Assembly: GCA_934097015.1 (NCBI GenBank)
Contig: CAKONF010000001.1
Location: 65,082 to 129,081, forward strand
Origin: an uncultured Bacilli bacterium
Lineage (GTDB): Bacteria > Bacillota_I > Bacilli_A > RF39 > UBA660
Direction: 5' to 3'
Length of the DNA: 64,000 bases
Shown here piece by piece: positions 3,580 to 23,890 of this stretch (within the stretch, counting starts at the first letter, position 1; each line of letters opens with the position of its first letter). The position numbers and the translations under genes were made by a program. Below the pieces are notes generated by a model. That model was not told the DNA's origin. It saw only the letters and a program-made list of their open reading frames with translations, and did not search any database.

Positions 3580-4014
3580 TTATAATTTTGTTTTACATAT
3601 TTCATCCATTGATACGTTAAATTGTTTACAAAATTCAACTAAAAATATAGTTAATATTAAGGTTTTTCCATTTTCGTATGCGCTTATAGTTGAATGAGTA
3701 GTATTAAAAATACTTGCTATATATTCTTGATTTACATTATTATCTTTTCTTATTTTTTTTAAATTACTTCCTATTAATTTTTTATCTAATTCTTTTATAA
3801 TTGGATATTTTTTATTTTGTTTAGATAATCCCATTAAGTAATCCATACTTATATTATATTTATTACAAATAGTATTTAATTTTGTTAGAGGAATATATTG
3901 TTCTAATGTTTCCCATCTAGCGTATGTTGATTTACTTACATTTAATTCGTTTGCCATTGCTCTTTGTGATAGGTTTTTCTTTTCTCTTATTTCAATTAGT
4001 TTATTTAAAGACAT
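3580..4014 (-). CDS. XRE-family transcriptional regulator with two helix-turn-helix domains
   Basis: Two Cro/C1-type HTH segments are present: 'LSQRAMANELNVSKSTYARWE' and 'VNQEYIASIFNTTHSTISAYENGK'. The gene is divergent from the 4193 ORF. Confidence 0.75.
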   Translation of the reverse strand: MSLNKLIEIREKKNLSQRAMANELNVSKSTYARWETLEQYIPLTKLNTICNKYNISMDYLMGLSKQNKKYPIIKELDKKLIGSNLKKIRKDNNVNQEYIASIFNTTHSTISAYENGKTLILTIFLVEFCKQFNVSMDEICKTKL

Positions 4015-4192
4015 GTAATCACCAATTAAATTGTCCCATTATTTTTACATTTTTATTCACTTGCCCCTAGCATACGACAAAATATTTTGCTATAATTTAA
4101 TTGTAATGATAGGAGTGGTTGTGGAGAGTATTATGTTTTTAGGTTGTTTAGTGTGAATGATTTATTAAATTATAGGAAAGAAGGAAATAAAT

Positions 4193-4771
4193 ATGAATTT
4201 AGAAAATATAATAAAAAAGGAATTAGAGAAAAGAAATAGATTAATTGATTATGATATGAAATCTTTTGAAAAATTTACGAAAGATTATATAACAGTTGAA
4301 AAATTAAATGATGGAAATAAAACTACTCATTTAGATATTGATAAAATTAAAGCTGATGGTAAAGAAGATGAATATAATTTTATTATTTCTTGTTGTAATA
4401 ATTCTCAAATTAGAAGACAAATTTTGACTGATTTAATTAGAGAAAATTCCAATTTGGATTATAATTCAATTAATATTAACACTGTAACTGAGATGATTGA
4501 AAGGAATAAATATCGTGATTCGAGATATAGTGCATTTACTGATGTTGTTTCTATTAATGATCAAAGAGAATTTGCAATGTATTTTGGTAAAGAGATTGAT
4601 GTATCTAATTTAAAAGATTTAAGTTCTGAAGAGCAAGTAAAAACATTTACAAATTATCTTTTAAAAACAATATATGATATGGGATTTACTAATGAAGATT
4701 TGTATCAAGCTTGTAATAGTATTGGTATGGAATTTGGTGGAGTAGAAAAAGAGCATTCTAGAAGTTTATAA
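4193..4771 (+). CDS. Hypothetical protein
   Basis: Clean ORF with RBS 'gaaagaaggaaataaatATG'. No recognisable motif. Confidence 0.5.
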   Translation: MNLENIIKKELEKRNRLIDYDMKSFEKFTKDYITVEKLNDGNKTTHLDIDKIKADGKEDEYNFIISCCNNSQIRRQILTDLIRENSNLDYNSININTVTEMIERNKYRDSRYSAFTDVVSINDQREFAMYFGKEIDVSNLKDLSSEEQVKTFTNYLLKTIYDMGFTNEDLYQACNSIGMEFGGVEKEHSRSL

Positions 4772-4942
4772 TATAAAAGAATTAAAATTTTATTGTGATA
4801 TTTGATAAAATTTAATTCTTTTTCTATTTTATAAATTAGTTAGTTATTAGGTTAATACTTTTTGATTTTATTTTTATAAATCGTTTACTTGACTCTCCAG
4901 TTAGATGTAATGTTATATTACTTAACGAAGGGAGAGATTAAT

Positions 4943-5131
4943 ATGAAAAATTTAAAAGAAATTAAGAATATTATAAGTTCATTAATTTATAAAAATAATT
5001 TGTTAACCTCTATTAATCGAGAACAGAAAAGAATAATAGATGAATTAATGTATAAGAATGAACAACTAGAAAGTGATTTAGAATATAGTAAAGTTAATGG
5101 TGGAATTAAAAAGAAAATATTAAAGTATTAA
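4943..5131 (+). CDS. Small coiled-coil hypothetical protein (62 aa from the RBS-supported ATG)
   Basis: RBS 'agggagag' lies 7 nt before the ATG at 4943. The tracked ORF from 4889 has no RBS. Confidence 0.4.
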   Translation: MKNLKEIKNIISSLIYKNNLLTSINREQKRIIDELMYKNEQLESDLEYSKVNGGIKKKILKY

Positions 5132-5170
5132 CTTATTATGTTATACTTAATTTAGAGAGTGTGGGTTAAT

Positions 5171-5560
5171 ATGTATAAGATAGGAGAATTTGCAAATGTA
5201 GTTAAATCTAATATTAAAACAATTAGATATTATGATGAAATAGATTTATTAAAACCTAAAGTTATAGATAAATTTACTTCATATAGATACTATGATGAAG
5301 ATAATGTTAGAGAATACTATGCAATTATATTATTAAAACAAATGGGTTTTAGTTTAGAAGAAATAAAAATATATAAAGATGATTTAAGTGATGATATATT
5401 TTTAAAACAAAGAGAAAAATTATTAAATAATATAATTGAAATGAAAAATACAATAAAAATGATAGATAAAACAAGAAGTAATATTGTTAATGGTAAAATA
5501 AAATTAGATAATTTTGATTATGAAATAAGTAATATAGATACTAGAAAAAAGGAGAGATAA
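5171..5560 (+). CDS. MerR-family transcriptional regulator
   Basis: 'MYKIGEFANVVKSNIKTIRYYDEIDLLKP...YRYYDEDNV...LKQMGFSLEEIK' is the canonical MerR HTH plus the start of the coiled coil. The start is taken at the ATG giving MYKIGEF. Confidence 0.75.
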   Translation: MYKIGEFANVVKSNIKTIRYYDEIDLLKPKVIDKFTSYRYYDEDNVREYYAIILLKQMGFSLEEIKIYKDDLSDDIFLKQREKLLNNIIEMKNTIKMIDKTRSNIVNGKIKLDNFDYEISNIDTRKKER

Positions 5561-5563
5561 AAT

Positions 5564-6469
5564 ATGAAAAAGAAATTATATGAAGATTTTGAAAGTACTG
5601 GTAAAACAAATGCAATAAAGAAAAGAGTTAGTGAGTTAATAAATAAAAATAAGAGTATGGTAATACTTGATACTAAGAAAGAATATGAAGAATTATTTAA
5701 AAATACTAATTATGAAATAATTAAATTAGATATAAGTGATTTAAATAGCGATATTGCTTATAATCCTTTATATGATGCAGAAAAATTATTTAAAAATGGA
5801 AATATAGATGATTCAATAGAAAAGATAGTAAATTTTGGAAAACTATTAATTCATACTGAAGATAGTGTTGATCCTTATTGGGATAATGCTGCTAGAAGTA
5901 TGTTTACTGGAATATGTTTATATGTTTTAAATAATAATAGAAGTTTAAATTTAAAAGAAATAATAAAAGTAAGTATAGATGAAATGGATGAGATGACTAA
6001 ATATATTAATAATTTAGATGTTTTGAATTATATAAATATAATTACATCAAGTGTAATAAATGCACCTGTAGAAACTAAGGGTGGAATAATGTCTGTTTTA
6101 AAACAATATTTAGGACATTTTGCACATAGACCTAATTTATTAGATAAAATTAGTGTTGATAGAGGTATTGAATTAAAGAGTAAAAATCAAGTTATATTAT
6201 TAACTAATTTTAGTCAAAAGACTATATTTAATATTATTATAGAGAATGCTTTAATTAATATTATAAATGAAATGATTGATAGTAAAGAAGAATATGTAGT
6301 TGTGCTAGATAACTATGATAGTATAATGAATACTGAAGAATTTACTAAGTTATTTAAATCTTATTTATCTGATAACATAGAATGTATTGTTGGTGTAAGA
6401 GATAATAGTTTAGTTAAACCTTTAGATGAGTTTTTAGTTATGTACAGAAAAGGTAAATTAACTGAATAA
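5564..6469 (+). CDS. Soluble, degenerate TraG/VirD4-type coupling-protein-like ATPase domain protein
   Basis: 'VILDTKKEY...DIAYNPLYDAEKL...DPYWDNAARSMFTGICLYVL' resembles the T4CP core (vvDpKGE...NPL...DPFW..aA..Ll). The Walker A is degenerate ('STGKT'), a Walker-B-like 'VVVLDNYD' is present, and there are no N-terminal TM helices. Confidence 0.4.
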   Translation: MKKKLYEDFESTGKTNAIKKRVSELINKNKSMVILDTKKEYEELFKNTNYEIIKLDISDLNSDIAYNPLYDAEKLFKNGNIDDSIEKIVNFGKLLIHTEDSVDPYWDNAARSMFTGICLYVLNNNRSLNLKEIIKVSIDEMDEMTKYINNLDVLNYINIITSSVINAPVETKGGIMSVLKQYLGHFAHRPNLLDKISVDRGIELKSKNQVILLTNFSQKTIFNIIIENALINIINEMIDSKEEYVVVLDNYDSIMNTEEFTKLFKSYLSDNIECIVGVRDNSLVKPLDEFLVMYRKGKLTE

Positions 6470-6518
6470 TAACAAAAAAGCATTTGACAAAACTAATATC
6501 AAATGCTATTATTTGATT

Positions 6519-6602
6519 AAGTAGAACGTCTACCCCCTGTAGGTTAGATTGTCTACCTTTGTGTTAGTAGAAATCCGTCCTAACTGAGTGGCGGATGTTT
6601 TT
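6519..6602 (+). ncRNA. Predicted convergent antisense sRNA of module A (candidate antitoxin RNA)
   Basis: The TTGACA (6484-6489), a 17-nt spacer and TATTAT (6507-6512) sit inside the sense terminator hairpin. The hairpin 6573-6597 is followed by TTTTT. The RNA is fully complementary to the sense 3'UTR. Confidence 0.5.
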
Positions 6603-6610
6603 ATTTTAAT

Positions 6611-6688
6611 TTAATTATCTTTATCTAAGAAGAGTAATATTAAAATAACAATGATTCTATTCATAAATTTTTCTAAATTTTTGAACAT
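6611..6688 (-). CDS. 25-aa hydrophobic peptide MFKNLEKFMNRIIVILILLFLDKDN (candidate type I toxin)
   Basis: The peptide is conserved in all three repeat copies. The SD 'aaggtggtg' lies 5-6 nt upstream of the ATG. Confidence 0.6.
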   Translation of the reverse strand: MFKNLEKFMNRIIVILILLFLDKDN

Positions 6689-6854
6689 AATATCACCACC
6701 TTACTGCTTATACTCTTTAATAATTCAGTTAGTAAGGTAGACATCAAACCAGACGTTCGATTAGTTATACTAATATAAATTAATTTTAATTTAAAGATTT
6801 TCGACAATACTTCTAAAAACTTATCAAATTGTGACAAATATTGTCTTTTTTTAT

Positions 6855-6883
6855 TGCAATGTAGTTTAAAATGTAGTATAGTA
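6855..6883 (+). promoter_or_regulatory. Sigma-A promoter of the perR-rbr operon
   Basis: TTGCAA (6855-6860), a 17-nt spacer, then TATAGT (6878-6883). Confidence 0.5.
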
Positions 6884-6886
6884 TTA

Positions 6887-6903
6887 TTAGTAATCATTAC
6901 TAA
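6887..6903 (+). promoter_or_regulatory. PerR/Fur-type operator (7-1-7 inverted repeat)
   Basis: TTAGTAATcATTACTAA is a perfect palindrome, close to the Per box TTATAATnATTATAA. It lies just downstream of the -10 of perR. Confidence 0.55.
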
Positions 6904-13951: not shown

Positions 13952-16513
13952 CTAAGCCTTTTTTTGTTGTTTTTTATTGATTACTAAATAAGTTATAGTA
14001 ATTATTAATGTTGTTATACTTATAGATATACCTATATCTAAATTATTAGGAATATATTTTAATTCTATGTTGTTTTCTCCTTTTTTTAAATCAAATCCTA
14101 ATAGACTATCATTAATTTTATAAGTTTTTATTTCTTTATTATTTGAATATACTTTCCATCCTTTATCGTATGGTATAGATGTATATATTGAAGTATCATT
14201 TTGAAGTGTAATATTTCCTTTTATATTATTTTCTTTGAAATTAGTAATGTTTATTCTATTTGAATTTAGTATGTTATAGGCTTCTATAAATTTATTATTT
14301 TCTATAGTATAAATATCTATTTCTTCATTTAAGTATGTTTTATAAGATACATATATTTCTACATTGTTATCATTAGATGTTGTATTTATTATATATTCTT
14401 CATCATATGAATTACATTCTTTAAATGTTCTATTTAGTTTTATTTGTATATCATTTATATTGATATTATTTTTATAATATATTTTATCATTTATTATAAT
14501 ATAATTAATTTGTGTATTGTTTGAATATAGATATATATTATCAAATTCATTTATATAATTATATTTAACTATTGTTTCTTTTTTATTTTGTGTAATTATT
14601 TCTCTGTTGTCAAGTGTTAATCTATGAAATACATTTTCTATATTTGTTCCATAATTTATAAAATTATTTTGATATTCTATTGGATTTATAAAATTATTAG
14701 TCCATTTTTTTATTGATTTATTTACTCCAAACATTAATCCTGTTGTGTAATTAAATTTATATGTTAAAGTATTATTTTTGTTTAATTCTAAATTATATCT
14801 TTTATTATCATTGTTTTTTCCAATCGTATATTTTATATCAAACATTAAATCGTATACTGGTGTATTTTGTTTATAATAATAACTATTGATTCTATTACCT
14901 GGTTGTCCTAAATCATTATTTAATTCTGCTAGACTATTATATGCCATTGATGTAAATGTACTTTGTCCGTAATAGTTATACCATGCTCCATCATTAAGAG
15001 TTAGTATTGTGTTTTTTTCAGTTCTATAAAACAATTCATTATCTTTTTCTTTGATTTCACTTATACTTTCATGTACGTTATTGTATGTTGAATAAAATTC
15101 ATCAATGTATTGTAAAATATCCCAATTATGATTTACTGATATTACACATTCGATAGAGCATACAATTATAAATAAAAGTGTACTTAAATTTTTAAATCTT
15201 GGATAGAAATGATATAGGGTATAGATTAAGAAATAAGTTGATATTAATAAATAATTTATTGTTATCATATTTGATGTTATATTGTTATATTTTGTTAAGT
15301 ATACAAATGTTATGAATAATAGACAAATAACATATGTTATTAAAATTTTTGTAAAAGATATTTCTTTTATGTTTTTTAATGAATAAGCACATGTTAATAT
15401 AAGTATGAAACTATATATAAATGAATATCTATATGGCAAATCATTTGGTACATGGAATGCGTGCCATATATAATCTAAAGGAGCAACATAAAATGAAGTT
15501 AATAAGAATATAAGAATTAATGTGTATACTATTTTTCTTTTAATATTGATTTTTTTATTAAGTATGAATAATAAATATAAGCCTATAGATAGTATTCCGC
15601 ATGATACGTTTGGAGCATTTGATATGTCTGATGCAAATACTGTTTTTGTTATTCCAGTTAAATGATTTTTAAAAAAGTTAATTATAGTGAATGCATAATA
15701 TTGTTCTGTTGGAATAGTTCCCATAGTTGCATTTGTACTTTTTAAAGATTCATACATTGGTATTAGTTCAAATGCTAATAGTAAACCAGCAATTAAAGAA
15801 CATATTGCAAATTTTAAACATTTTTTTGATATTTTTTTAACGTTAAATTTTTTTGTTTTAATTATTAAATATGATAAGAAATATATACATGAATAAATAC
15901 ATATCATATATCCTATAAAATAATTTGTGAATAATATTAATATTAAAGATAGTGTATATAAAACTCCATTATCTTTATTAATTATATTTTCTATACCTAA
16001 CGTTATTAAAGGAAGAATGTACATTCCATCTAACCACATTATATTCCAATAGTATGCTGTAAAATATGCTGAGTATCCGTAAAGAAGTGATATTCCTATC
16101 ATATATAATTTGTTTGTATTAAATTTTTTATGTATATAATATGAGCATGTGATACAAGATAATATACTTTTTAAACCTATTATTATTGAATAAGACATTA
16201 TAATATTTCTTCTTTTGAATAAAAACATTATTATATTTAGTGGTGATGATAAGTAATTAAAAAAGTTTCTGAAATACGGTAGTCCTAATCCTGTATTAAA
16301 ACTATATATAATGTTTGTACCTTTTTTTATTCTGTCGTATAGTTCTGCTAGCATGGGTCCGTATTGATGAAAAAAATCTATTGTTAGAAGTGAATTTCTA
16401 CCAAATGGTGCAACATCTTGTAGTATATATATTGTAGATATTATTGATACTCCTAATATAAATACTACTATTAAATATCCATATTTTTTTAAAAAGTTTT
16501 TCATAAGTACCAC
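13952..16513 (-). CDS. YfhO-family polytopic membrane protein (putative glycosyltransferase)
   Basis: 853 aa with many TM segments. The N-terminal 'DVAPFGRNSLLTIDFFHQYGPML' matches the YfhO N-terminal signature. It has a large C-terminal extracytoplasmic domain. Confidence 0.6.
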   Translation of the reverse strand: MVLMKNFLKKYGYLIVVFILGVSIISTIYILQDVAPFGRNSLLTIDFFHQYGPMLAELYDRIKKGTNIIYSFNTGLGLPYFRNFFNYLSSPLNIIMFLFKRRNIIMSYSIIIGLKSILSCITCSYYIHKKFNTNKLYMIGISLLYGYSAYFTAYYWNIMWLDGMYILPLITLGIENIINKDNGVLYTLSLILILFTNYFIGYMICIYSCIYFLSYLIIKTKKFNVKKISKKCLKFAICSLIAGLLLAFELIPMYESLKSTNATMGTIPTEQYYAFTIINFFKNHLTGITKTVFASDISNAPNVSCGILSIGLYLLFILNKKINIKRKIVYTLILIFLLTSFYVAPLDYIWHAFHVPNDLPYRYSFIYSFILILTCAYSLKNIKEISFTKILITYVICLLFITFVYLTKYNNITSNMITINYLLISTYFLIYTLYHFYPRFKNLSTLLFIIVCSIECVISVNHNWDILQYIDEFYSTYNNVHESISEIKEKDNELFYRTEKNTILTLNDGAWYNYYGQSTFTSMAYNSLAELNNDLGQPGNRINSYYYKQNTPVYDLMFDIKYTIGKNNDNKRYNLELNKNNTLTYKFNYTTGLMFGVNKSIKKWTNNFINPIEYQNNFINYGTNIENVFHRLTLDNREIITQNKKETIVKYNYINEFDNIYLYSNNTQINYIIINDKIYYKNNININDIQIKLNRTFKECNSYDEEYIINTTSNDNNVEIYVSYKTYLNEEIDIYTIENNKFIEAYNILNSNRINITNFKENNIKGNITLQNDTSIYTSIPYDKGWKVYSNNKEIKTYKINDSLLGFDLKKGENNIELKYIPNNLDIGISISITTLIITITYLVINKKQQKKA

Positions 16514-16718
16514 CTAATTAAAATTATATAATATAGGTTATTTTTATTCAATTTTTTATTTGTCTTTTTTTGTTTTATTTTGATAAGTTTTTAGAAGTTT
16601 TGTCGAATGACTTTATTTTATTATTAGATTGTATTAGTATAACTAATCGAACGTCTGGGTTGATGTCTACCTTACGAACTGAATTATAAAAGAGTAAAAG
16701 TAGTAAGGTGGTGATATT

Positions 16719-16793
16719 ATGTTCAAAAATTTAGAAAAATTTATGAATAGAATCATTGTTATTTTAATATTACTCTTCTTGGATAAAGAATAA
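16719..16793 (+). CDS. 24-aa hydrophobic peptide MFKNLEKFMNRIIVILILLFLDKE (candidate type I toxin)
   Basis: ATG start with SD 'aaggtggtg'. It has a charged N-terminus, a 10-13-residue aliphatic core and an acidic tail. Confidence 0.6.
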   Translation: MFKNLEKFMNRIIVILILLFLDKE

Positions 16794-16802
16794 TTAAATT
16801 AA

Positions 16803-16885
16803 AATAAAAACATCCGCCACTCAGTTAGGACGGATGCCTGCAACCAAGGTAGACATCTAACCTACAGGGGGTAGACGTTCTACTT
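16803..16885 (-). ncRNA. Predicted antisense sRNA of module B
   Basis: Minus-strand -35 TTGACA (plus-strand tgtcaa, 16915-16920) and -10 TATTAT (plus-strand ataata, 16892-16897) with a 17-nt spacer. The terminator hairpin (plus-strand 16811-16836) is followed on the minus strand by a T-run. Confidence 0.5.
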
Positions 16886-17098
16886 GATTAAATAATAGCA
16901 TTTGATATAGTGATTGTCAAATGTTTTTTTTATGTAGATTTTACTAAAAATGTAGAAATATGATAAGTTTTTGGAAGTTTTGTCGAAAATCTTTAATTTA
17001 TTATTAGATTGTATTAGTATAACAAATCGAACGTCTGGGTTGATGTCTACCTTACTAACTGAATTATTAGAGAGTAAAAGTAGTAAGGTGGTGATAAT

Positions 17099-17173
17099 GT
17101 GTTCAAAAATTTAGAAAAATTTATGAATAGAATCATTGTTATTTTAATATTACTCTTCTTAGATAAAGAATAA
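17099..17173 (+). CDS. 24-aa peptide (V/M)FKNLEKFMNRIIVILILLFLDKE with a GTG start
   Basis: Identical to the copy B peptide except for the start codon. An upstream out-of-frame ATG gives MCSKI* only. Confidence 0.45.
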   Translation: MFKNLEKFMNRIIVILILLFLDKE

Positions 17174-17182
17174 TTAAATTAA

Positions 17183-17267
17183 AATAAAAACATCCGCCAC
17201 TCAGTTAGGACGGATGTCTTCCAACACAAAGGTAGACATCTAACCTACAGGGGTAGACGTTCTACTT
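17183..17267 (-). ncRNA. Predicted antisense sRNA of module C
   Basis: Minus-strand TTGACA (plus-strand 17298-17303) with a TATTAT-like -10. The hairpin 17191-17216 is followed on the minus strand by a T-run. Confidence 0.45.
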
Positions 17268-17322
17268 TATTAAATAATAACATTTATTATATATAGTTGT
17301 CAATTGATAATGGAGGGTTTTG

Positions 17323-17654
17323 ATGAAAAATAAATTGCAGATAATAAATAAAATGTATCATGATGAAAGTATTAGAACTTATATTGTATTAGAAGATAAA
17401 AAGTATTATATAAGTCTATATGATGTTGTATTAAAATTAACTAATTATAAAAATATACAATCTTTTATAGTACGTTTAAAAAAAAATTATTATTAGAACA
17501 AAATAAAGTTATTTATAATTTTAAAACTTTTAATTTAGTAAAAAAGGGAGAGGGTAGGTATAAAAGAACTGAAATGATAGATTTTGATAGTTTAATTATT
17601 CTATTAGATTATATTCCTGTTAGAAATAAAGAATATGTTAAAGATTTTTTATAG
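17323..17654 (+). pseudogene. Bro-N/KilA-N-like small ORF split by a frameshift at an A9 tract
   Basis: ORF 17323-17496 (MKNKLQIINKMYHDESIRTYIVLEDKKYYISLYDVVLKLTNYKNIQSFIVRLKKNYY*) continues in the -1 frame after A9 (17478-17486) as LLEQNKVIYNFKTFNLVKKGEGRYKRTEMIDFDSLIILLDYIPVRNKEYVKDFL*. RBS is 'ggaggg'. Confidence 0.4.
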
Positions 17655-17817
17655 ATTAAATAACTCTATTTTAAACGTGTTAATTTAATTGATAAGGGTT
17701 TAATATATAACGATACAAATAAATTCATTAAAAATATTTATTTAGATGGTAGAATATTTGTACTTGTAAAACGTTAACATTTATTATAAAATTATTTTAG
17801 AGTAGAAGGTGTTTCTA

Positions 17818-18069
17818 GTGGATAATAAAGTTAATGTTGATTTGATAGTTCCTAGTATTGGAGAGAGATATAATATATTTATTCCAGTAAATAAAACTAT
17901 TGGGGAAGTTATTGTTATTCTTAATAATACAATAAATAATATGACAGGTTATTTTCCTATAGTAAATAATTTATCTATTTTGGATGTTGTTAGTAATAAA
18001 ATATATGGAAGTAATGTAGATGTAAAAAGTGCTGGTATAAAAAATGGTGCTATACTTGCATTAATATAG
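17818..18069 (+). CDS. esaB: YukD/EsaB-like ubiquitin-fold T7SS protein
   Basis: 83 aa starting 'MDNKVNVDLIVPSIGERYNIFIPVNKTIGEVI'. It lies immediately upstream of essC. The start is taken at GTG 17818 with SD 'gaaggtg'. Confidence 0.7.
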   Translation: MDNKVNVDLIVPSIGERYNIFIPVNKTIGEVIVILNNTINNMTGYFPIVNNLSILDVVSNKIYGSNVDVKSAGIKNGAILALI

Positions 18070-18076
18070 GTGTAAT

Positions 18077-21000
18077 ATGAGGTTAGTATTAGAAAGTAAA
18101 GACCAATTAACTATTACTAAATTACCTAACACTGTATCCGGTAATTATTGGATAATTGATGATAATAATAAAAATCTACTTAATGTTAGTGTAGAAAATG
18201 ATAGTTGGGTATTGAATAGCAATACAGAGATAAAAATTAGCAACAACATTAATAATGATAAATTAAGTAATATTAATTATTTAGAAAAAGTTATTTTAGA
18301 AGAAAATAAATATTATTATATTACTAATATAATGACTAAAGAAAATTATATATTATATACTTTACCTAGTTATGAATATTATGAAAACTTTGTTATAGAT
18401 TATAATCAAAACAATAATATAATTATTGGTAATGGTAAAAATAGTGATATAGGAATTAATAATAGTTTGTTTAATGATAAAGATATTAGTATAGAATATG
18501 ATAAAAAAAGCAACAATATATTATTTAAAAACTTAAATGAAAAAAGTAATAGTTTTATAAATTATAGAAAATGTAATAGTTGTTATTTAAGTAATGGAGA
18601 TATTATATTTAAAAATGGTATATTTATTTATTATTTTGGTAGTTTATTGTTAGTTAGTAATAATAAACATGATTTAGTATTTAATTCTTTAAGAGTTAAT
18701 AAAAGATTAATTAAAGAAAATGAAAAAAAGGATTACAGTAATTTAATAGATAAAGATGTTAAAGTATTTGATAAAAATAGTATGTTTCAAAGACCTCCAA
18801 GGTTTAAAAGGAAGATAGAACATAAAGAATTTAATATTGATAGTCCTACACAAAAAGAAAATGACGAAGAAACTCCATTAATATTTACAATAGCTCCTAT
18901 GATGACTATGGGAATGATGAGTTTAGTAACTGGAATGAGTAGTTTAGGAAAAGTATTAAATGGTGAAAGTACAGTAAAACAAGAATTAGGTTCACTTTTA
19001 ATGTGTGGATGTATGTTGCTTTCTATGATAGTGTTTCCGTTAATTCAAAAGTTTTATGATAAAATGAAAAAAGCGCAAAAAGAAAGAAAACGAAGAAGAA
19101 AATATAAAAAGTATATTAGTAGTAAACACGATGAAATATTTAAAGAAATAAATTTTCAAAAACAAGTTATGATAGAAGATAATTTACCTATAGATAAAGT
19201 AAGAGATATAATTTTATCTAGAAGTAGAAATTTATGGGATAGAAAATTAGAACATGAAGATTTTTTAAATTTAAGACTTGGTATTGGAAATACTAAACCC
19301 GATATAGAAATTAAATATCCTGAAAGCCATTTTACTTTAGAAGAAGATGATTTAAAAGATATAATAGATGATTTAGTGAATGAAAGTAAAGATATTACTG
19401 ATGTCCCTATTACACTTAATTTTAGAACTAATAATAAGACTGGTGTAATAGGTGATAATAATAATTTATATAATATGTTAGATAATTTAATGCTACAGAT
19501 AATGGCTTATCATGGATATGATATGTTAAGAATTTGTATATTGACTAATAATAATGTTTATTGGGATAAGTATAGAAACTTACCTTATTTGTGGAATAAT
19601 GATAAAAGTATAAGATATTATGCTAGTAATAAAGAAGATATTAATAAAGTATGTAGTTATTTAATGGAAGAATATAATTATAGAAAAGAAGTATATGAAG
19701 ATGGTACTGTATTTAATCCATATTATTTAATTATTACTGATGATATTAATAGTGTTAAGAATAATGTATTTGTTAGTGAAATATTAAAGAATCGTAGTAA
19801 TTTGGGTTATAGTTTGCTTATGTGCGTTAATAAATTAGATTTATTGCCTAATGAATGTAATATGTTTGTTAATTTAAGTAATGAAGTATGTGGTATATTT
19901 ACTAATCAAATGACTATGGATAATCAAATTGCTTTTAAGAAAGATGTTGTTAATTTTTCTTTAAGAAATGCAATTGCTAATATTAGTAATATTCCTATGG
20001 ATATAAATAATGGTAAATTTGTTTTGCCTAAAAAATATGGTTTCTTAGAAATGTATGATGTTGGAAATGTGAATCAACTTAATATTGTTAATCGTTGGAA
20101 GAATAATGATGTTATCAATAGTTTGAGTTGTCCTGTTGGTATTGATGAACAGGGTGAATTATTCAATATTGATTTACATGAAAAGGCTCATGGACCTCAT
20201 GGATTAGTTGCAGGTATGACTGGTAGTGGTAAGTCTGAATGGATTATTACTTATATATTATCTATGGCAATTAATTATAGTCCTGAAGAAGTTCAATTTG
20301 TACTTATAGATTATAAGGGTGGAGGACTTGCGTTAACATTTGATAATAGAGAAAATAATATTAAATTGCCACATGTAGTTGGTACTATTACGAACTTAGA
20401 TATTGTTGAGATTAAAAGAAGTTTAGCCAGTATAGAGAGTGAACTTAAAAGACGTCAAGCAATGTTTAAGAAAGCTCGTGAAATACTAAATGAAAGTAGT
20501 ATGGATATATATAAATATCAAGATTATTATAGACAAGGTAAACTTAGTGATCCAATGAGTCATTTATTTATAATAAGTGATGAGTTTGCTGAATTAAAAG
20601 TACAACAACCTGAGTTTATGGATAAACTTATTAGTACAGCAAGAATTGGACGTAGTTTAGGAGTGCATTTGATACTTGCTACTCAGAAACCGAGTGGGGT
20701 TGTAGATGACCAAATATGGTCTAACTCTAAATTTAGAGTATGTTTAAAAGTACAAGATAAGAGTGATTCAAATGATATGATTAAATGTCCTGATGCTGCT
20801 ATGATAAAAGAAACTGGTAGATTTTTCTTACAAGTTGGATATAATGAATTATTTATGAAAGGACAAAGTGCTTATGCTGGAATGCCATATTATGAAAGTG
20901 ATAAAAAAATTACCGTTGTTAATTCTAGTATAGATTTTGTTGATGAAATAGGTAGTATTATAAAACGCGGTGATGTTAAAAAGAATAATACTCAATATGT

Positions 21001-22672
21001 TCATAAAGGTGAAGAGTTGCCAAATGTTTTAAATTATATTATAGATACTTTTAAAAATGAAAATTTAAATGTTAAACCATTATGGTTAAGTAGTATACCT
21101 AAAGTAATATATGTAGATAAATTAAAAGAAAAATATAATTATGTAAAAGAAGATTATGTTTTAAATCCTATTATTGGAGAATATGATTATCCTTCTAAAC
21201 AAACACAAGGTTTATTAACATTAGAATTAAGTAAAGAAGGAAATACAATAATATATGGTTCTAGTGGAAGTGGTAAAGAAAATTTAATTACGACAATACT
21301 TTATTCATTGATTAGCAATTACAGTGTATATGAAGTAAATAGTTATATATTAGATTTTGGGAGTGAAATATTAAATAATTTTGAAGCTGCACCACATGTC
21401 GGAGATATTATACATAGTGGTGATGATGAGAAAATAGAAAACTTATTTAAATTTATAAATAATGAGATTAAATTTAGACGTAAAAAGTTTATGAATAGCA
21501 ATGGAAATTATTTAGATTATGTAAAAAATAGTGAAGAAAAAATACCAAATATTGTTGTTATAATAAATTTATTTGAAGTGTTTAGTGATTTATATGATAA
21601 ATATATTGATAATATAGTTGAACTAACTAGAGATTCCTCTAAATATGGTATATTTTTCATTTTAACTAGTGCTAGTAGCACTGGAATTAGAACTAAGATA
21701 ACACAAAATTTTAAAAATTTGATTACTTTACAATTGAATGATGAAATGGATTATAGGAATGTATTGGGAAATACTAACGGTGTTGTTCCTAGCAAATACG
21801 TTGGTAGGGGATTAGTCAAGTTGGATAAAGTTGTAGAGTTTCAAACTGCATATTGTTATCCTAAAGAAAATTTATATGATAATGTAAAAATGCTATGTGT
21901 TAAATTATTTATGGATATGAAGATGAAAGCAAGAGCGATACCTGTATTACCTAATGTTGTAGAATTTAAAGATATTAATAAAAATGAAATAAACATAAAT
22001 AACATACCTATTGGTATAGTTAAAAAAACTTTAGATATTGCTAGTATTAATTTGAAAGATAACATTAGTTATTTAATGAGTAGTAGAAATTTTGATGATA
22101 TGTTAACTTTTATTGATAAATTATTATTTATATTAAATAGTTCTAGTAGTTTTAATACATTTGTATTTGATAGTAAGTTTGTTTATGAGGAAAATAAATT
22201 TAATAATATAACATATTTGAATAATGGATATAGTGATGTGTTAAAACAAATAAGTGAGTATGCAGATAACGTAGATGATGTATTAAAACAAAATAGTAAT
22301 AATAGGAAAAGTATTAGTAATGTAAAAGAAGTTTTAGTTGTATTATTAGGATTAGATAAGTTTGTTAAGTCTTTAAATGACGATGATAAAAAACTATTTG
22401 AAAATATTATTAATAAAACTAAAGATAGTATAAAAATACATTTTGTGTTTGTTGATGGTAGTAATAGTTTAAAGAAGAACGAATATGAATCTTGGTATAA
22501 AGATATAGTTGATTCTAGCAGTGGTTTATGGATTGGTGATGGTTTTGCAGAACAATATAGTATTAAACCTACAAAGATTCAACAATCGTATTATGAATTA
22601 ATTGGTAATAGGTTTGGATATATAGTTTCTAATGGAAACGTAGATTATATTAAAATTATAGAGAAAGAGTAA
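18077..22672 (+). CDS. essC: EssC, the T7SS FtsK/SpoIIIE-family ATPase
   Basis: 1531 aa with an N-terminal FHA-like region and two TM helices near residues 265-325. It has multiple P-loop domains ('GLVAGMTGSGKSE', 'IIYGSSGSGKEN') with Walker B 'FIISDEF'. Confidence 0.9.
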   Translation: MRLVLESKDQLTITKLPNTVSGNYWIIDDNNKNLLNVSVENDSWVLNSNTEIKISNNINNDKLSNINYLEKVILEENKYYYITNIMTKENYILYTLPSYEYYENFVIDYNQNNNIIIGNGKNSDIGINNSLFNDKDISIEYDKKSNNILFKNLNEKSNSFINYRKCNSCYLSNGDIIFKNGIFIYYFGSLLLVSNNKHDLVFNSLRVNKRLIKENEKKDYSNLIDKDVKVFDKNSMFQRPPRFKRKIEHKEFNIDSPTQKENDEETPLIFTIAPMMTMGMMSLVTGMSSLGKVLNGESTVKQELGSLLMCGCMLLSMIVFPLIQKFYDKMKKAQKERKRRRKYKKYISSKHDEIFKEINFQKQVMIEDNLPIDKVRDIILSRSRNLWDRKLEHEDFLNLRLGIGNTKPDIEIKYPESHFTLEEDDLKDIIDDLVNESKDITDVPITLNFRTNNKTGVIGDNNNLYNMLDNLMLQIMAYHGYDMLRICILTNNNVYWDKYRNLPYLWNNDKSIRYYASNKEDINKVCSYLMEEYNYRKEVYEDGTVFNPYYLIITDDINSVKNNVFVSEILKNRSNLGYSLLMCVNKLDLLPNECNMFVNLSNEVCGIFTNQMTMDNQIAFKKDVVNFSLRNAIANISNIPMDINNGKFVLPKKYGFLEMYDVGNVNQLNIVNRWKNNDVINSLSCPVGIDEQGELFNIDLHEKAHGPHGLVAGMTGSGKSEWIITYILSMAINYSPEEVQFVLIDYKGGGLALTFDNRENNIKLPHVVGTITNLDIVEIKRSLASIESELKRRQAMFKKAREILNESSMDIYKYQDYYRQGKLSDPMSHLFIISDEFAELKVQQPEFMDKLISTARIGRSLGVHLILATQKPSGVVDDQIWSNSKFRVCLKVQDKSDSNDMIKCPDAAMIKETGRFFLQVGYNELFMKGQSAYAGMPYYESDKKITVVNSSIDFVDEIGSIIKRGDVKKNNTQYVHKGEELPNVLNYIIDTFKNENLNVKPLWLSSIPKVIYVDKLKEKYNYVKEDYVLNPIIGEYDYPSKQTQGLLTLELSKEGNTIIYGSSGSGKENLITTILYSLISNYSVYEVNSYILDFGSEILNNFEAAPHVGDIIHSGDDEKIENLFKFINNEIKFRRKKFMNSNGNYLDYVKNSEEKIPNIVVIINLFEVFSDLYDKYIDNIVELTRDSSKYGIFFILTSASSTGIRTKITQNFKNLITLQLNDEMDYRNVLGNTNGVVPSKYVGRGLVKLDKVVEFQTAYCYPKENLYDNVKMLCVKLFMDMKMKARAIPVLPNVVEFKDINKNEININNIPIGIVKKTLDIASINLKDNISYLMSSRNFDDMLTFIDKLLFILNSSSSFNTFVFDSKFVYEENKFNNITYLNNGYSDVLKQISEYADNVDDVLKQNSNNRKSISNVKEVLVVLLGLDKFVKSLNDDDKKLFENIINKTKDSIKIHFVFVDGSNSLKKNEYESWYKDIVDSSSGLWIGDGFAEQYSIKPTKIQQSYYELIGNRFGYIVSNGNVDYIKIIEKE

Positions 22673-22717
22673 AATAATGAAAAATGTCAATTATTGTCAA
22701 AAATTACCAAAATAATG

Positions 22718-22746
22718 TTGCATTGGTGAAAAAAATATTTTATACT
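22718..22746 (+). promoter_or_regulatory. Sigma-A promoter for the WXG gene
   Basis: TTGCAT (22718-22723), a 17-nt spacer, then TATACT (22741-22746). It gives an about 180-nt leader. Confidence 0.55.
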
Positions 22747-22874
22747 TTAGTTAGAGTAGTGAGTACTCTAAAAGACAATTATTATTTATGAAAAAATTAG
22801 AGATTATATATAACTAATCTCTTCTCTGGTGAGAAACAAGAGTTTACGAACAAACGTATGCTAAAAAAATCGTC

Positions 22875-22884
22875 GGGGGGGGGG
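22875..22884 (+). repeat. G10 homopolymer tract in the 5' leader of the WXG gene
   Basis: 'cgtcGGGGGGGGGGttatat'. A G10 run is extremely improbable in a roughly 22% GC genome. It sits about 50 nt upstream of the start codon. Confidence 0.9.
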
Positions 22885-22933
22885 TTATATAGAAAATATA
22901 TAATTTTTTTGTTTGGAGAAGGGAGTGTTTTTC

Positions 22934-23542
22934 ATGAATATTAATGTTAGAGATTTGGATTTAGGTTATAGTCAATGTGAGGAATTAAATACTTTATCTA
23001 AGACTAGTGGAACTAATTTAATTAGTAATTTGTCAACTGATATAAACAATTTAAAGGCTCACTGGAAAGGCACTGATGCTACAGCACATATAAACAATTT
23101 AATTAAAGTTTATGATGCTTTGGTTGCCTTGGTGACTGATGCTAAGGTTATTACTTGCAATTCAGGTAGTGCAATAAGCACTATTCAAGAAGTTAGAAGA
23201 AGTAATGGTGGTTCTGGAAATATTGGAGGTCCTTTAGATGGCAATGCGCCTGATGCAAGTAGTTTACCTACTATTGAATCAACAAGCGAATACTTTTGTG
23301 ATCCATCAGCTAGAATAGATTATACGTTATTAGAACAAATTTGTTCTGATTATTCTAGCTTTATTAATAATTTTAGAAGTCAAAAAGATGCTTTAATGTC
23401 AAATTGGACTGCAGGTGCCAACAGAGAAAATGCTGTTAAAGTATTTGATGAATTTGATTCGAATTCTGAGACATATAATAAATATTTAACAGATGCTAAA
23501 GAAAATTTAGGAATTGCTGTAAGTAATTTATCACAATTATAA
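22934..23542 (+). CDS. Tandem (double) WXG100-like T7SS substrate
   Basis: 202 aa from the ATG with SD 'ggagaagggag'. The first half has 'LKAHWKGTDATAH', a W-x-G motif in a helix-turn-helix. The second half has 'LMSNWTAGANRENA', a W-x-x-G variant. A Gly/Ser/Pro linker (RRSNGGSGNIGGPLDGNAPDASS) separates the halves. Confidence 0.6.
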   Translation: MNINVRDLDLGYSQCEELNTLSKTSGTNLISNLSTDINNLKAHWKGTDATAHINNLIKVYDALVALVTDAKVITCNSGSAISTIQEVRRSNGGSGNIGGPLDGNAPDASSLPTIESTSEYFCDPSARIDYTLLEQICSDYSSFINNFRSQKDALMSNWTAGANRENAVKVFDEFDSNSETYNKYLTDAKENLGIAVSNLSQL

Positions 23543-23545
23543 GAG

Positions 23546-23577
23546 TAAGAGTGGCGTAATTGTGTCGCTCTTTTATT
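23546..23577 (+). terminator. Possible attenuator or terminator hairpin after the WXG gene
   Basis: 'aagagtggcgtaattgtgtcgctcttttatt' is an imperfect stem followed by a T-rich run. Confidence 0.35.
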
Positions 23578-23593
23578 AGAGAGGAAAATTGAA

Positions 23594-23890
23594 ATGAATC
23601 AAAAATATGAAAAGTACTTACCAATTGGTAGTGTTGTTTTATTGAAAAATGCAAAAAAAAGAATAATGATTACTGGATTTTGTATAAAAAGTAAGGAATC
23701 TGATTTAGATAAAGTTTTTGATTATATTGGCTGTCTATATCCAGAAGGAATAATAGATTCTGAAAAAAATTTGTTATTTGATCATAATCAAATTGAAACT
23801 ATTTATGCAATAGGATATAGCGATGATGAAGAAAGAGAGTTCAAAAAGAAATTACAAGAAGTTTTAAAAGAGGAAAATAATAATGTCTAA
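23594..23890 (+). CDS. DUF4176-family protein (LXG-associated)
   Basis: 'YLPIGSVVLLKNAKKRIMITGF...FDYIGCLYPEGI' matches the DUF4176 pattern (LP.GSVV.LK.......G......DY.GC.YPEG) from memory. It overlaps the next ORF by 8 nt. Confidence 0.55.
   Translation: MNQKYEKYLPIGSVVLLKNAKKRIMITGFCIKSKESDLDKVFDYIGCLYPEGIIDSEKNLLFDHNQIETIYAIGYSDDEEREFKKKLQEVLKEENNNV

Follow-up and report, generated by a model that had tools for sequence, protein, structure and literature searches.

An element of about 350 bp, present in three copies in a 64-kb stretch of DNA from an uncultured Bacilli bacterium (contig CAKONF010000001.1; the whole stretch of 64,000 nucleotides is called the window here), probably belongs to an as yet undescribed family of type I toxin-antitoxin (TA)-like loci that are chromosomal and multi-copy, as judged from its sequence. 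The element carries an open reading frame (ORF) for a short hydrophobic peptide in a sense mRNA whose 5' end is predicted to pair with its own 3' untranslated region (3'UTR), and a convergent antisense RNA is predicted opposite the same part of the 3'UTR. As far as it has been searched for, the element is restricted to one uncultured gut lineage, and the likeliest reading is a new family of variant architecture. An earlier note on this DNA had described it as a type I-like module in three copies, each with the full set of parts. The three copies were indeed found (A, B, and C in Table 1), and the interpretation given there is supported by the parts that they contain and by 20 further full copies from related genomes. 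The full set is, however, found in copies A and C only. The sense terminator of copy B is degenerate, with no T-run, and the copy runs into the Shine-Dalgarno (SD) sequence and ATG of a 57-codon ORF.

Copies B and C are both approximately 91-92% identical to copy A. The 23-nt box of the 5'UTR and the 28-nt box of the hairpin occur three times each, for a chance expectation of 0, and no further diverged copies or orphan antisense genes were found in the window by tblastn, nhmmer, or covariance model. Homologues were searched for with a degenerate pattern for FKNLEKxxNRI in one genome per GTDB species. The element was found in just four species representatives, of which three are metagenome-assembled genomes of 'uncultured Bacilli bacterium' (Hadza) and one is 'uncultured Tenericutes bacterium UMGS1124' (contig URLV01000001.1, 108,574 bases). 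Other matches to the pattern (Flavobacteria and others) were treated as chance, given that nhmmer did not match them to the element. The four related genomes yielded 20 further full copies and 2 partial ones. The 23 distinct full-length copies (alignment A2) belong to two main sequence types plus intermediates, with two to three types co-resident in each genome. The related genomes contain at least three to seven copies each, some in tandem and others dispersed, and the dispersed copies adjoin unrelated housekeeping genes (recA-, lexA-, RNase J-, and nusG-like, as judged by eye). Between strain variants the element is found at the same two sites, with tandem arrays of one to three copies; in one strain (L005) there is a single copy, recombinant between A and B, and another genome has three copies in tandem. 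Strain-variable tandem arrays, dispersed copies, and two to three types per genome are all typical of type I TA loci. No blastn match was obtained in plasmid and phage collections, and the IMG/VR viral contigs gave 0 matches with two patterns, for which reason a phage or plasmid origin was dropped. A loop pattern that does not depend on the ORF retrieved one contig from the JGI metagenome contigs, equal in length to the UMGS1124 contig, which added no diversity.

The sense RNA is predicted to be approximately 290 nt long, from a -10-like box to the terminator. This box, TATAAC, is conserved in 22 of 25 copies; of the other three, two differ by single changes and one has an unread base. Its assignment as the sense promoter is uncertain. 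Folding predicts that the extreme 5' end of the mRNA forms an interrupted helix of about 30 bp (P1, P2, and P3) with three segments of the 3'UTR of the same molecule. The duplex between the 5'UTR and the 3'UTR has an energy of -38.8 kcal/mol, compared with -19.2 +/- 3.3 kcal/mol for shuffled sequences. The folds of three variants of the sense RNA have z-scores of -5.5 (whole mRNA of copy A), -5.0, and -6.1, and all share the same 5'-3' architecture. Between P2 and P1 there is an internal loop with an invariant CAGGGGG (16865-16871), which is single-stranded in the folds of the clamped mRNA. The 5' strand of P3 reads CTAACTGA in nearly all copies other than A. In the same type of prediction, the SD and the start codon are sequestered in local helices, and the probability of the SD being unpaired is 0.04-0.41 across six variants, with values of about 0.05-0.12 for type 1 (winA, winC, and L034) and 0.21-0.41 for type 2 (L041b, L028, and L044).

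The comparison of the copies makes it possible to evaluate each of these helices. P1 (A2 columns 6-14 with 250-258) is paired in 99% of the cells of the alignment, against 29-43% when the 3' partner is slid, and four of its nine pairs show compensatory changes, such as A-U to G-C, G-C to A-U, C-G to U-A, and U-A to C-G; the intermediate copies have an independent U-A to C-G change. P2 is paired in 98.8% of the cells, and 40 of these are G-U pairs that would be A-C mismatches if read on the other strand. For P3 (RNAalifold, A2 columns 32-39 with 193-200), half of the pairs are invariant and none is compensatory and, therefore, covariation neither supports nor refutes this helix. When the pairing is read on the antisense strand, it decreases from 99% to 92% in P1, from 98.8% to 87% in P2, and from 100% to 55% in the helix between the SD and the ORF, while it increases from 87% to 94% in the internal hairpin of the 3'UTR. 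Indeed, in type 2 a sense-strand A-C mismatch of the internal hairpin is a G-U pair on the antisense strand. This strand asymmetry supports the existence of two transcripts, and on this comparative evidence the long-range 5'-3' helix is taken to be real. The complementarity between the two UTRs that the earlier note had pointed out is, therefore, backed by the duplex energy, by compensatory covariation, and by G-U pairs specific to the sense strand.

The predicted antisense RNA is nested wholly in the 3'UTR, ending about 10 nt short of the stop codon of the ORF. It is composed of a 5' hairpin with an invariant CCCCCUG loop, a terminator hairpin (16836->16811), and a U-run. Its promoter, TTGACA-17/18-TGnTATTAT, is present in 22 of 23 copies and the U-run follows the terminator in all of them, so that promoter and terminator appear as the best-conserved transcription signal of the element. 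The antisense RNA has a fold z-score of -3.9, two pairs of its 5' hairpin covary in the consensus fold, and the covariance model scores copy A at 101 bits. This model matched exactly the three copies of the window, and no orphans were found with it in the related loci. Most of what had been proposed for this strand stands. The internal hairpin was said to act as a terminator on the opposite strand, and it is on this strand only that it is followed by a T-run and also on this strand that it pairs better. The antisense RNA, said to be of about 83 nt and complementary to the 3'UTR, is predicted at approximately 83-87 nt and fully nested there, and both RNAs, whose folding had been suggested as a check, fold stably. 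The consensus promoter was placed inside the sense terminator with a spacer of 17 nt; the location is right, and the spacer holds for copies A and C but is 18 nt in copy B.

Complementarity of the antisense RNA to the mRNA exceeds chance only at its target in the 3'UTR. A SprA1AS- or par-like pairing in trans at the SD and the start was rejected, given that the energy with the 5' part of the mRNA is -29.7 kcal/mol, compared with a shuffle mean of -30.1. The covariance model of the antisense RNA also gives weak matches (about 20-33 bits) on the sense strand, at 16846-16931 and at the equivalent positions of the other copies. The segment matched spans the 3' strands of P2 and P1 and the sense terminator, with the layout of a GGTAGAC-type box followed by a terminator hairpin. 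These matches may be the trace of an internal duplication at the origin of the element.

The ORF is preceded in the three copies of the window by the SD sequence AAGGTGGTG. The N-terminal half of the peptide is charged and is followed by a purely hydrophobic core of 10 residues, IIVILILLFL, and by the C-terminal end DKE; there are no P, G, C, or W residues. The start codon is ATG or GTG in all 25 copies, with A/G as the sole variation, and the stop codon is TAA or TAG in all 25, at the same place in 23 of them, while the other two have frameshifts close to the C-terminal end. The SD is retained with the proper spacing in both sequence types, despite the difference in the leader that surrounds it. 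Variable sites are distributed over the three codon positions as 7/1/7, or 7/1/5 when only the codons not constrained by the search pattern are counted, and, if one outlier copy is set aside, the replacements are F/L, L/M, I/V, I/M, and I/L. This pattern suggests a coding-type conservation of a hydrophobic peptide that is only modestly significant, and it is in line with the SD-preceded hydrophobic ORF described in the earlier note. The peptide was said there to belong to no recognised family and, indeed, no match at E<=10 was obtained in Pfam and NCBIfam (three variants), in PHROGs and PADLOC (two variants), or in the PDB (one variant).

Table 1. Positions in the window of the three copies of the element and of their parts (an arrow marks positions given in descending order).
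Feature	Copy	Position	Strand	Remarks
Unit	A	16581-16935	+	
Unit	B	16961-17306	+	in tandem with A, 380-bp period
Unit	C	6826-6474	-	
Conserved upstream block TTGATAAGTTTTTAGAAGTTTTGTCGAA, 28 nt	A	16580-16607	+	5' edge of every copy
Conserved upstream block	B	16960-16987		
Conserved upstream block	C	6827-6800	-	
Putative weak sense promoter, -10-like TATAAC	A	16638-16643	+	5 nt ahead of the first base of P1
P1, 5' strand GAACGTCTG	A	16649-16657	+	pairs with 16872-16880
P1	B	17029-17037 with 17254-17262	+	
P1	C	6758->6750 with 6532->6524	-	
P2, 5' strand GGTTGATGTCTACCT	A	16658-16672	+	pairs with 16847-16862
P3, 5' strand CGAACTGA	A	16675-16682	+	complementary to the loop of the internal hairpin
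Shine-Dalgarno region AAGGTGGTGA	A	16705-16714	+	predicted base-paired
ORF	A	ATG 16719, stop TAA 16791-16793	+	24 codons, peptide MFKNLEKFMNRIIVILILLFLDKE
ORF	B	17099-17173	+	GTG start, peptide identical to that of copy A
ORF	C	6688->6611	-	25 amino acids, C-terminus DKDN
Internal hairpin CATCCGCC..GGACGGATG	A	16811-16836		T5AT4 follows on the opposite strand only
Internal hairpin	C	6597->6572	-	
3'UTR partner region	A	16847-16880	+	3' strand of P2, internal loop, 3' strand of P1 (16872-16880)
Sense terminator, hairpin GCATTTGA..TCAAATG and T8	A	16898-16931	+	holds the -35 of the antisense promoter
Sense terminator and T-run	C	6507->6479	-	detected by terminator scan
Antisense promoter TTGACA-17-TG-TATTAT	A	16920->16892	-	11/12, inside the hairpin of the sense terminator
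Antisense promoter	B	17303->17274	-	18-nt spacer
Antisense promoter TTGACA-17-TG-TATTAT	C	6484-6512	+	11/12
Predicted antisense RNA	A	16803-16885	-	~83-87 nt
Predicted antisense RNA	B	~17267->17183	-	
Predicted antisense RNA	C	~6519-6605	+	covariance model 100.9 bits

Type I TA systems are defined by an mRNA of 150-400 nt, a protein of 20-60 amino acids that is usually hydrophobic, pairing between the SD and an anti-SD, an antisense RNA that acts by base pairing, and a peptide that is toxic on expression and whose synthesis this RNA prevents (PMC8594479). The element has a predicted sense unit of about 290 nt with an ORF of 24 codons, an SD/ORF helix predicted to be fully paired in 23 copies, and a predicted antisense RNA of about 85 nt, fully complementary to the 3'UTR and delimited by a promoter and a strand-specific terminator. 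It appears to agree with the definition of the class wherever sequence can test it, and to fall outside each specific family with which it was compared. A match to a leader or riboswitch family of Rfam, which had been named beforehand as an observation that would speak against the module, did not appear: at the gathering threshold there was no match in the whole window, and a permissive search of 16500-17400 returned unrelated families with E>=0.18, the best of them at 23.4 bits against a threshold of 81.9 bits.

The txpA/RatA, bsrG/SR4, bsrE/SR5, and yonT/SR6 systems of Bacillus subtilis are similar to the predicted layout of the element in that the genes are convergent and the antisense RNA is directed to the 3' part of the mRNA of a hydrophobic peptide. 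An RNase III-sensitive duplex that leads to mRNA decay is likely common to all of them (PMC3531473, PMC5848175, PMC8594479). In the B. subtilis families the overlap of the 3' ends is partial and extends into the ORF (PMC8594479), whereas the predicted antisense RNA of the element is nested in the 3'UTR, free of the ORF, and its promoter lies inside the terminator of the mRNA. The peptide has 24 amino acids, compared with 58 for the YonT toxin (PMC5848175). With Pfam, NCBIfam, and Rfam, no similarity of peptide or RNA to the txpA, bsrG, bsrE, and yonT families was found. The toxins of the other 3'-overlapping families of B. subtilis are likewise longer than 24 amino acids.

The 5'-3' lock has its counterparts elsewhere. 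In hok and aapA1 the full-length mRNA is locked between its 5' and 3' ends with the SD sequestered, which makes it stable and inert (PMC5416894, PMC9841398). P1 and P2 would form a lock of this kind, and the element would resemble hok/sok (R1) and aapA1/IsoA1 (Helicobacter pylori) only in function. In both of these systems the antisense RNA targets the 5'UTR or initiation region of the 3'-processed mRNA and the 3' partner serves as a lock only, while in the element it is the 3' lock itself to which the predicted antisense RNA is complementary, which makes the 5'UTR and the antisense RNA competing mimics. Unlike hok, the element has no mok-like leader ORF, and the access to its SD is predicted to be independent of the lock. 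With the antisense RNA opposite the 3'UTR, and no match to HOK_GEF or any other Pfam family, the element is not a member of the Hok or AapA families. The analogy with hok/sok drawn in the earlier note is only partial, given that the SD is predicted to be sequestered with or without an available partner in the 3'UTR.

The par locus (fst/RNA II of Enterococcus faecalis pAD1, Fst/Ldr superfamily) is also convergent, with a helix at the 5' end and a stem-loop that sequesters the SD. In its RNA I, the 5'-UH helix sequesters the extreme 5' end and stabilises the toxin mRNA, and the complementary terminator loops, which we count among the likenesses to the element, form the kissing site (PMC7472228). 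In par, one bidirectional terminator is shared and direct repeats pair RNA II with the translation initiation region, whereas in the element each RNA has its own terminator and there is no above-chance antisense pairing at the initiation region. The Fst peptide is recognised by PXXXG(C) in its hydrophobic domain, by a Trp that is conserved, and by charges in its C-terminal tail (PMC7472228); the peptide of the element has neither the PXXXG(C) motif nor Trp, and ends in DKE instead of a long charged tail. As for size, the Ibs/Sib and ShoB systems of enterobacteria also have very short hydrophobic peptides, in multi-copy tandem loci with antisense recognition specific to each paralogue. The toxins of these systems have about 18-26 amino acids. 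They belong to a different phylum and have no sequence similarity to the element, and in Ibs/Sib the Sib RNA spans the whole ibs ORF (PMC8594479). By this comparison, the element would join the 5'-3' lock of hok and aapA1 to the 3'-side antisense RNA of the Gram-positive systems, with the lock itself as the target.

Several observations weigh against the assignment of the element to type I TA loci. No canonical sense promoter was found; TATAAC has no -35, and the promoter scan gave none with >=9/12 here. The codon-position evidence is modest (p ~0.02-0.04, binomial estimate), and the homologues were retrieved by a pattern based on the ORF, which biases the sample towards intact ORFs. All of them belong to one narrow lineage and, therefore, much of the covariation rests on two to three ancestral types. 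The hydrophobic core, with just 10-11 residues or so, is short for a transmembrane helix. In constrained folding the SD and the start codon are as accessible in the complete RNA as they are after masking of the antisense target or truncation at the 3' end, so that any functional effect of the clamp is putative. Finally, an orphan copy (L027) has an intact SD without any antisense gene. In favour of the assignment, on the other hand, a deletion derivative (L011:19312-19553) has lost everything from the loop of the antisense terminator onward and has a damaged SD and P1 box; this single case would fit the inactivation of the toxin alongside the loss of the antitoxin.

The short core and the orphan copy are also what could be expected if the peptide were an antisense-regulated small membrane peptide with a benign regulatory, signalling, or envelope role, and not a toxin. 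This explanation is unlikely, although the RNA evidence says nothing on toxicity and four species share one of the sites, that beside the type VII secretion genes. What speaks for a toxin is that the loci are multi-copy, with strain-variable tandem arrays and co-resident diversified types, that a strong promoter of the antitoxin type opposes a weak sense promoter, and that the SD and the start are heavily sequestered. Such features are hallmarks of type I TA systems (PMC8594479) and would be unusual for a housekeeping peptide.

It is improbable that the element is a pair of non-coding RNAs (a small RNA and its sponge) or a selfish RNA element, in which the ORF would be incidental and conserved through RNA structure. 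In favour of this, no other part of the element is as conserved in nucleotide sequence as the ORF, many synonymous sites included, a portion of the ORF pairs with the region of the SD and the start, and the apical loop of the antisense RNA is C-rich, as are the loops used by trans-acting small RNAs of Firmicutes. Nonetheless, an incidental ORF does not account for starts and stops confined to ATG/GTG and TAA/TAG in 25 of 25 copies, for an SD spacing kept in both types, for variation that avoids codon position 2, or for a hydrophobicity kept in all but one outlier; and the antisense RNA has no above-chance complementarity beyond its own target in the 3'UTR.

A miniature inverted-repeat transposable element (MITE)-like mobile repeat, with the internal inverted repeat as a feature of the DNA such as a transposase binding site, is more doubtful again and very improbable, even though a repeat of about 350 bp with an internal inverted repeat is dispersed in at least three to seven copies per genome beside unrelated housekeeping genes. 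The inverted repeat lies inside the element, with 65 nt between it and the 5' edge and 55 nt between it and the 3' edge, and it is interrupted and asymmetric (34 versus 65 nt), with T/C changes tolerated only where G-U results on one strand. The alignments, which include no empty site, show no terminal inverted repeats or target-site duplications at the borders of the unit, the element has two transcription units delimited by promoters and terminators, and there is no phage, plasmid, or IMG/VR match. It is barely credible that the element is a leader, attenuator, or riboswitch that regulates a downstream gene in cis. Copy B and its orthologues do lack a sense terminator and run into the 57-codon ORF that precedes the type VII secretion genes, but a terminator closes most copies, which are found in unrelated contexts and orientations, and Rfam gave no match at the gathering or the permissive threshold.

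For a type I TA-like locus, the parts described above suggest how the toxin would be kept silent and released. The clamp would hide both ends of the mRNA, giving rise to a stable and untranslated toxin mRNA. The antisense RNA, presumably abundant, would nucleate on the parts that are unpaired in the clamp, which are the CAGGGGG loop, through the CCCCCUG apical loop, and possibly the loop of the hairpin, and would then displace the 5'UTR to form a duplex of about 85 bp. Cleavage of this duplex by RNase III would leave the unclamped 5' end and a 3' end without terminator open to exonucleases. If the antisense transcription were to stop, the stable mRNA would outlast the antisense RNA and the membrane-active peptide would be made. 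The sequence types, which differ mainly in P1, would act as orthogonal pairs. A hok-like control of SD access by the clamp was not supported by constrained folding. Since the predicted access to the SD is independent of the clamp, control of mRNA stability and degradation is favoured over a translational unlocking of the hok or aapA1 type (PMC5416894), and the folding models make it more likely that the clamp controls mRNA stability and antisense access rather than translation.

The 5'UTR mimics the predicted antisense RNA in the same sense and in the same order, and has the blocks GAACGUCU, GAUGUCUACCUU, and CUAACUGA in common with it, the last of these being the 5'UTR segment of the P3 contact with the loop of the internal hairpin. 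Given that both are complementary to the same segments of the 3'UTR, they must compete. This allows a tentative and still doubtful proposal, in which the 5'UTR would act in cis by occupying the target of the antitoxin, and the antisense RNA would have to win a strand-displacement contest nucleated at CAGGGGG/CCCCCUG. The clamp would then set a threshold and a timer for the action of the antitoxin, the binding of the antitoxin would be linked directly to the unmasking of both mRNA ends for decay, and the divergence of P1 would create orthogonal toxin/antitoxin pairs within one genome. Among the type I TA families, no description of such a regulatory principle was found.

At the 5' edge of the element, the conserved upstream block has two AAGTTTT repeats 10 bp apart, which corresponds to one helical turn. 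It is conserved in both sequence types and, within the window, is confined to the three copies; it is possible, as a speculation, that it is the site of a regulator or activator. Readings of the block and of the P1 box as LexA (Cheo box), sigma-H, or extracytoplasmic function (ECF)-type sites were rejected by eye for misfits of spacing and consensus. A 74-codon ORF (6673-6897, minus strand) overlaps the upstream block and the 5'UTR of copy C in another frame and is probably spurious, given that in copies A and B it falls below the 60-codon threshold for listing and that it is not called in the related loci.

The host is an uncultured human-gut lineage of Bacilli/'Tenericutes', and proteins encoded in the window have identical matches on human gut metagenome contigs (Hadza and other cohorts). 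The GC content of the window is 18-26% locally and about 23% overall, with a GC skew that is uniformly strong and positive (0.23-0.48) over all 64 kb. Standard stop codons are used by the lineage, and in the first 30 kb of the window most large ORFs are on the plus strand. A type VII secretion-like cluster is found directly downstream of copies A and B, at 17818-23890 and on to about 30000. It includes a YukD/EsaB-like protein of 83 amino acids (GTG at 17818), an FtsK/SpoIIIE (EssC-like) ATPase of 1531 amino acids, a faint WXG100-like protein, and a DUF4176 protein. In all four species, the terminator-less copy B occupies the same place upstream of this cluster. The 57-codon ORF (17324-17497, MKNKLQIINKMYHDES...), which comes right after copy B, has a GGAGGG SD and no Pfam match on record; it is a called gene in related contigs, where the interval from its end to the YukD-like gene is free of called genes. 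Some strains have a different sequence after the YfhO gene (L011:19312-20400 and L014:10075-11160, compared with 16581-17809 of the window), with two ORFs of 136 and 141 amino acids in place of the first part of the type VII cluster. The element found there is a deletion derivative, with no antisense gene and with a mutated SD and P1 box. Copy C adjoins the remnant of a mobile element (3580-6469), which has a double helix-turn-helix XRE-type regulator, a MerR-family regulator, and a fragment of 301 amino acids of a TrwB/type IV secretion system coupling protein (TrwB_AAD_bind), followed by Fur/PerR and rubrerythrin genes.

Rather than a new category of system, the element would be a variant architecture within the type I TA-like class. 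If this reading is correct, it would add to the class a new family from a very low-GC (23%) gut lineage, with a peptide of 24 amino acids that is among the shortest candidate toxins. The natural type 1 and type 2 variants are in effect ready-made compensatory mutants, which makes the competition between the cis mimic and the trans-acting antisense RNA directly testable, and the element could be used as a compact orthogonal RNA switch. Even if the peptide were harmless, the element would still be a well-supported new gene family of antisense-regulated small proteins.

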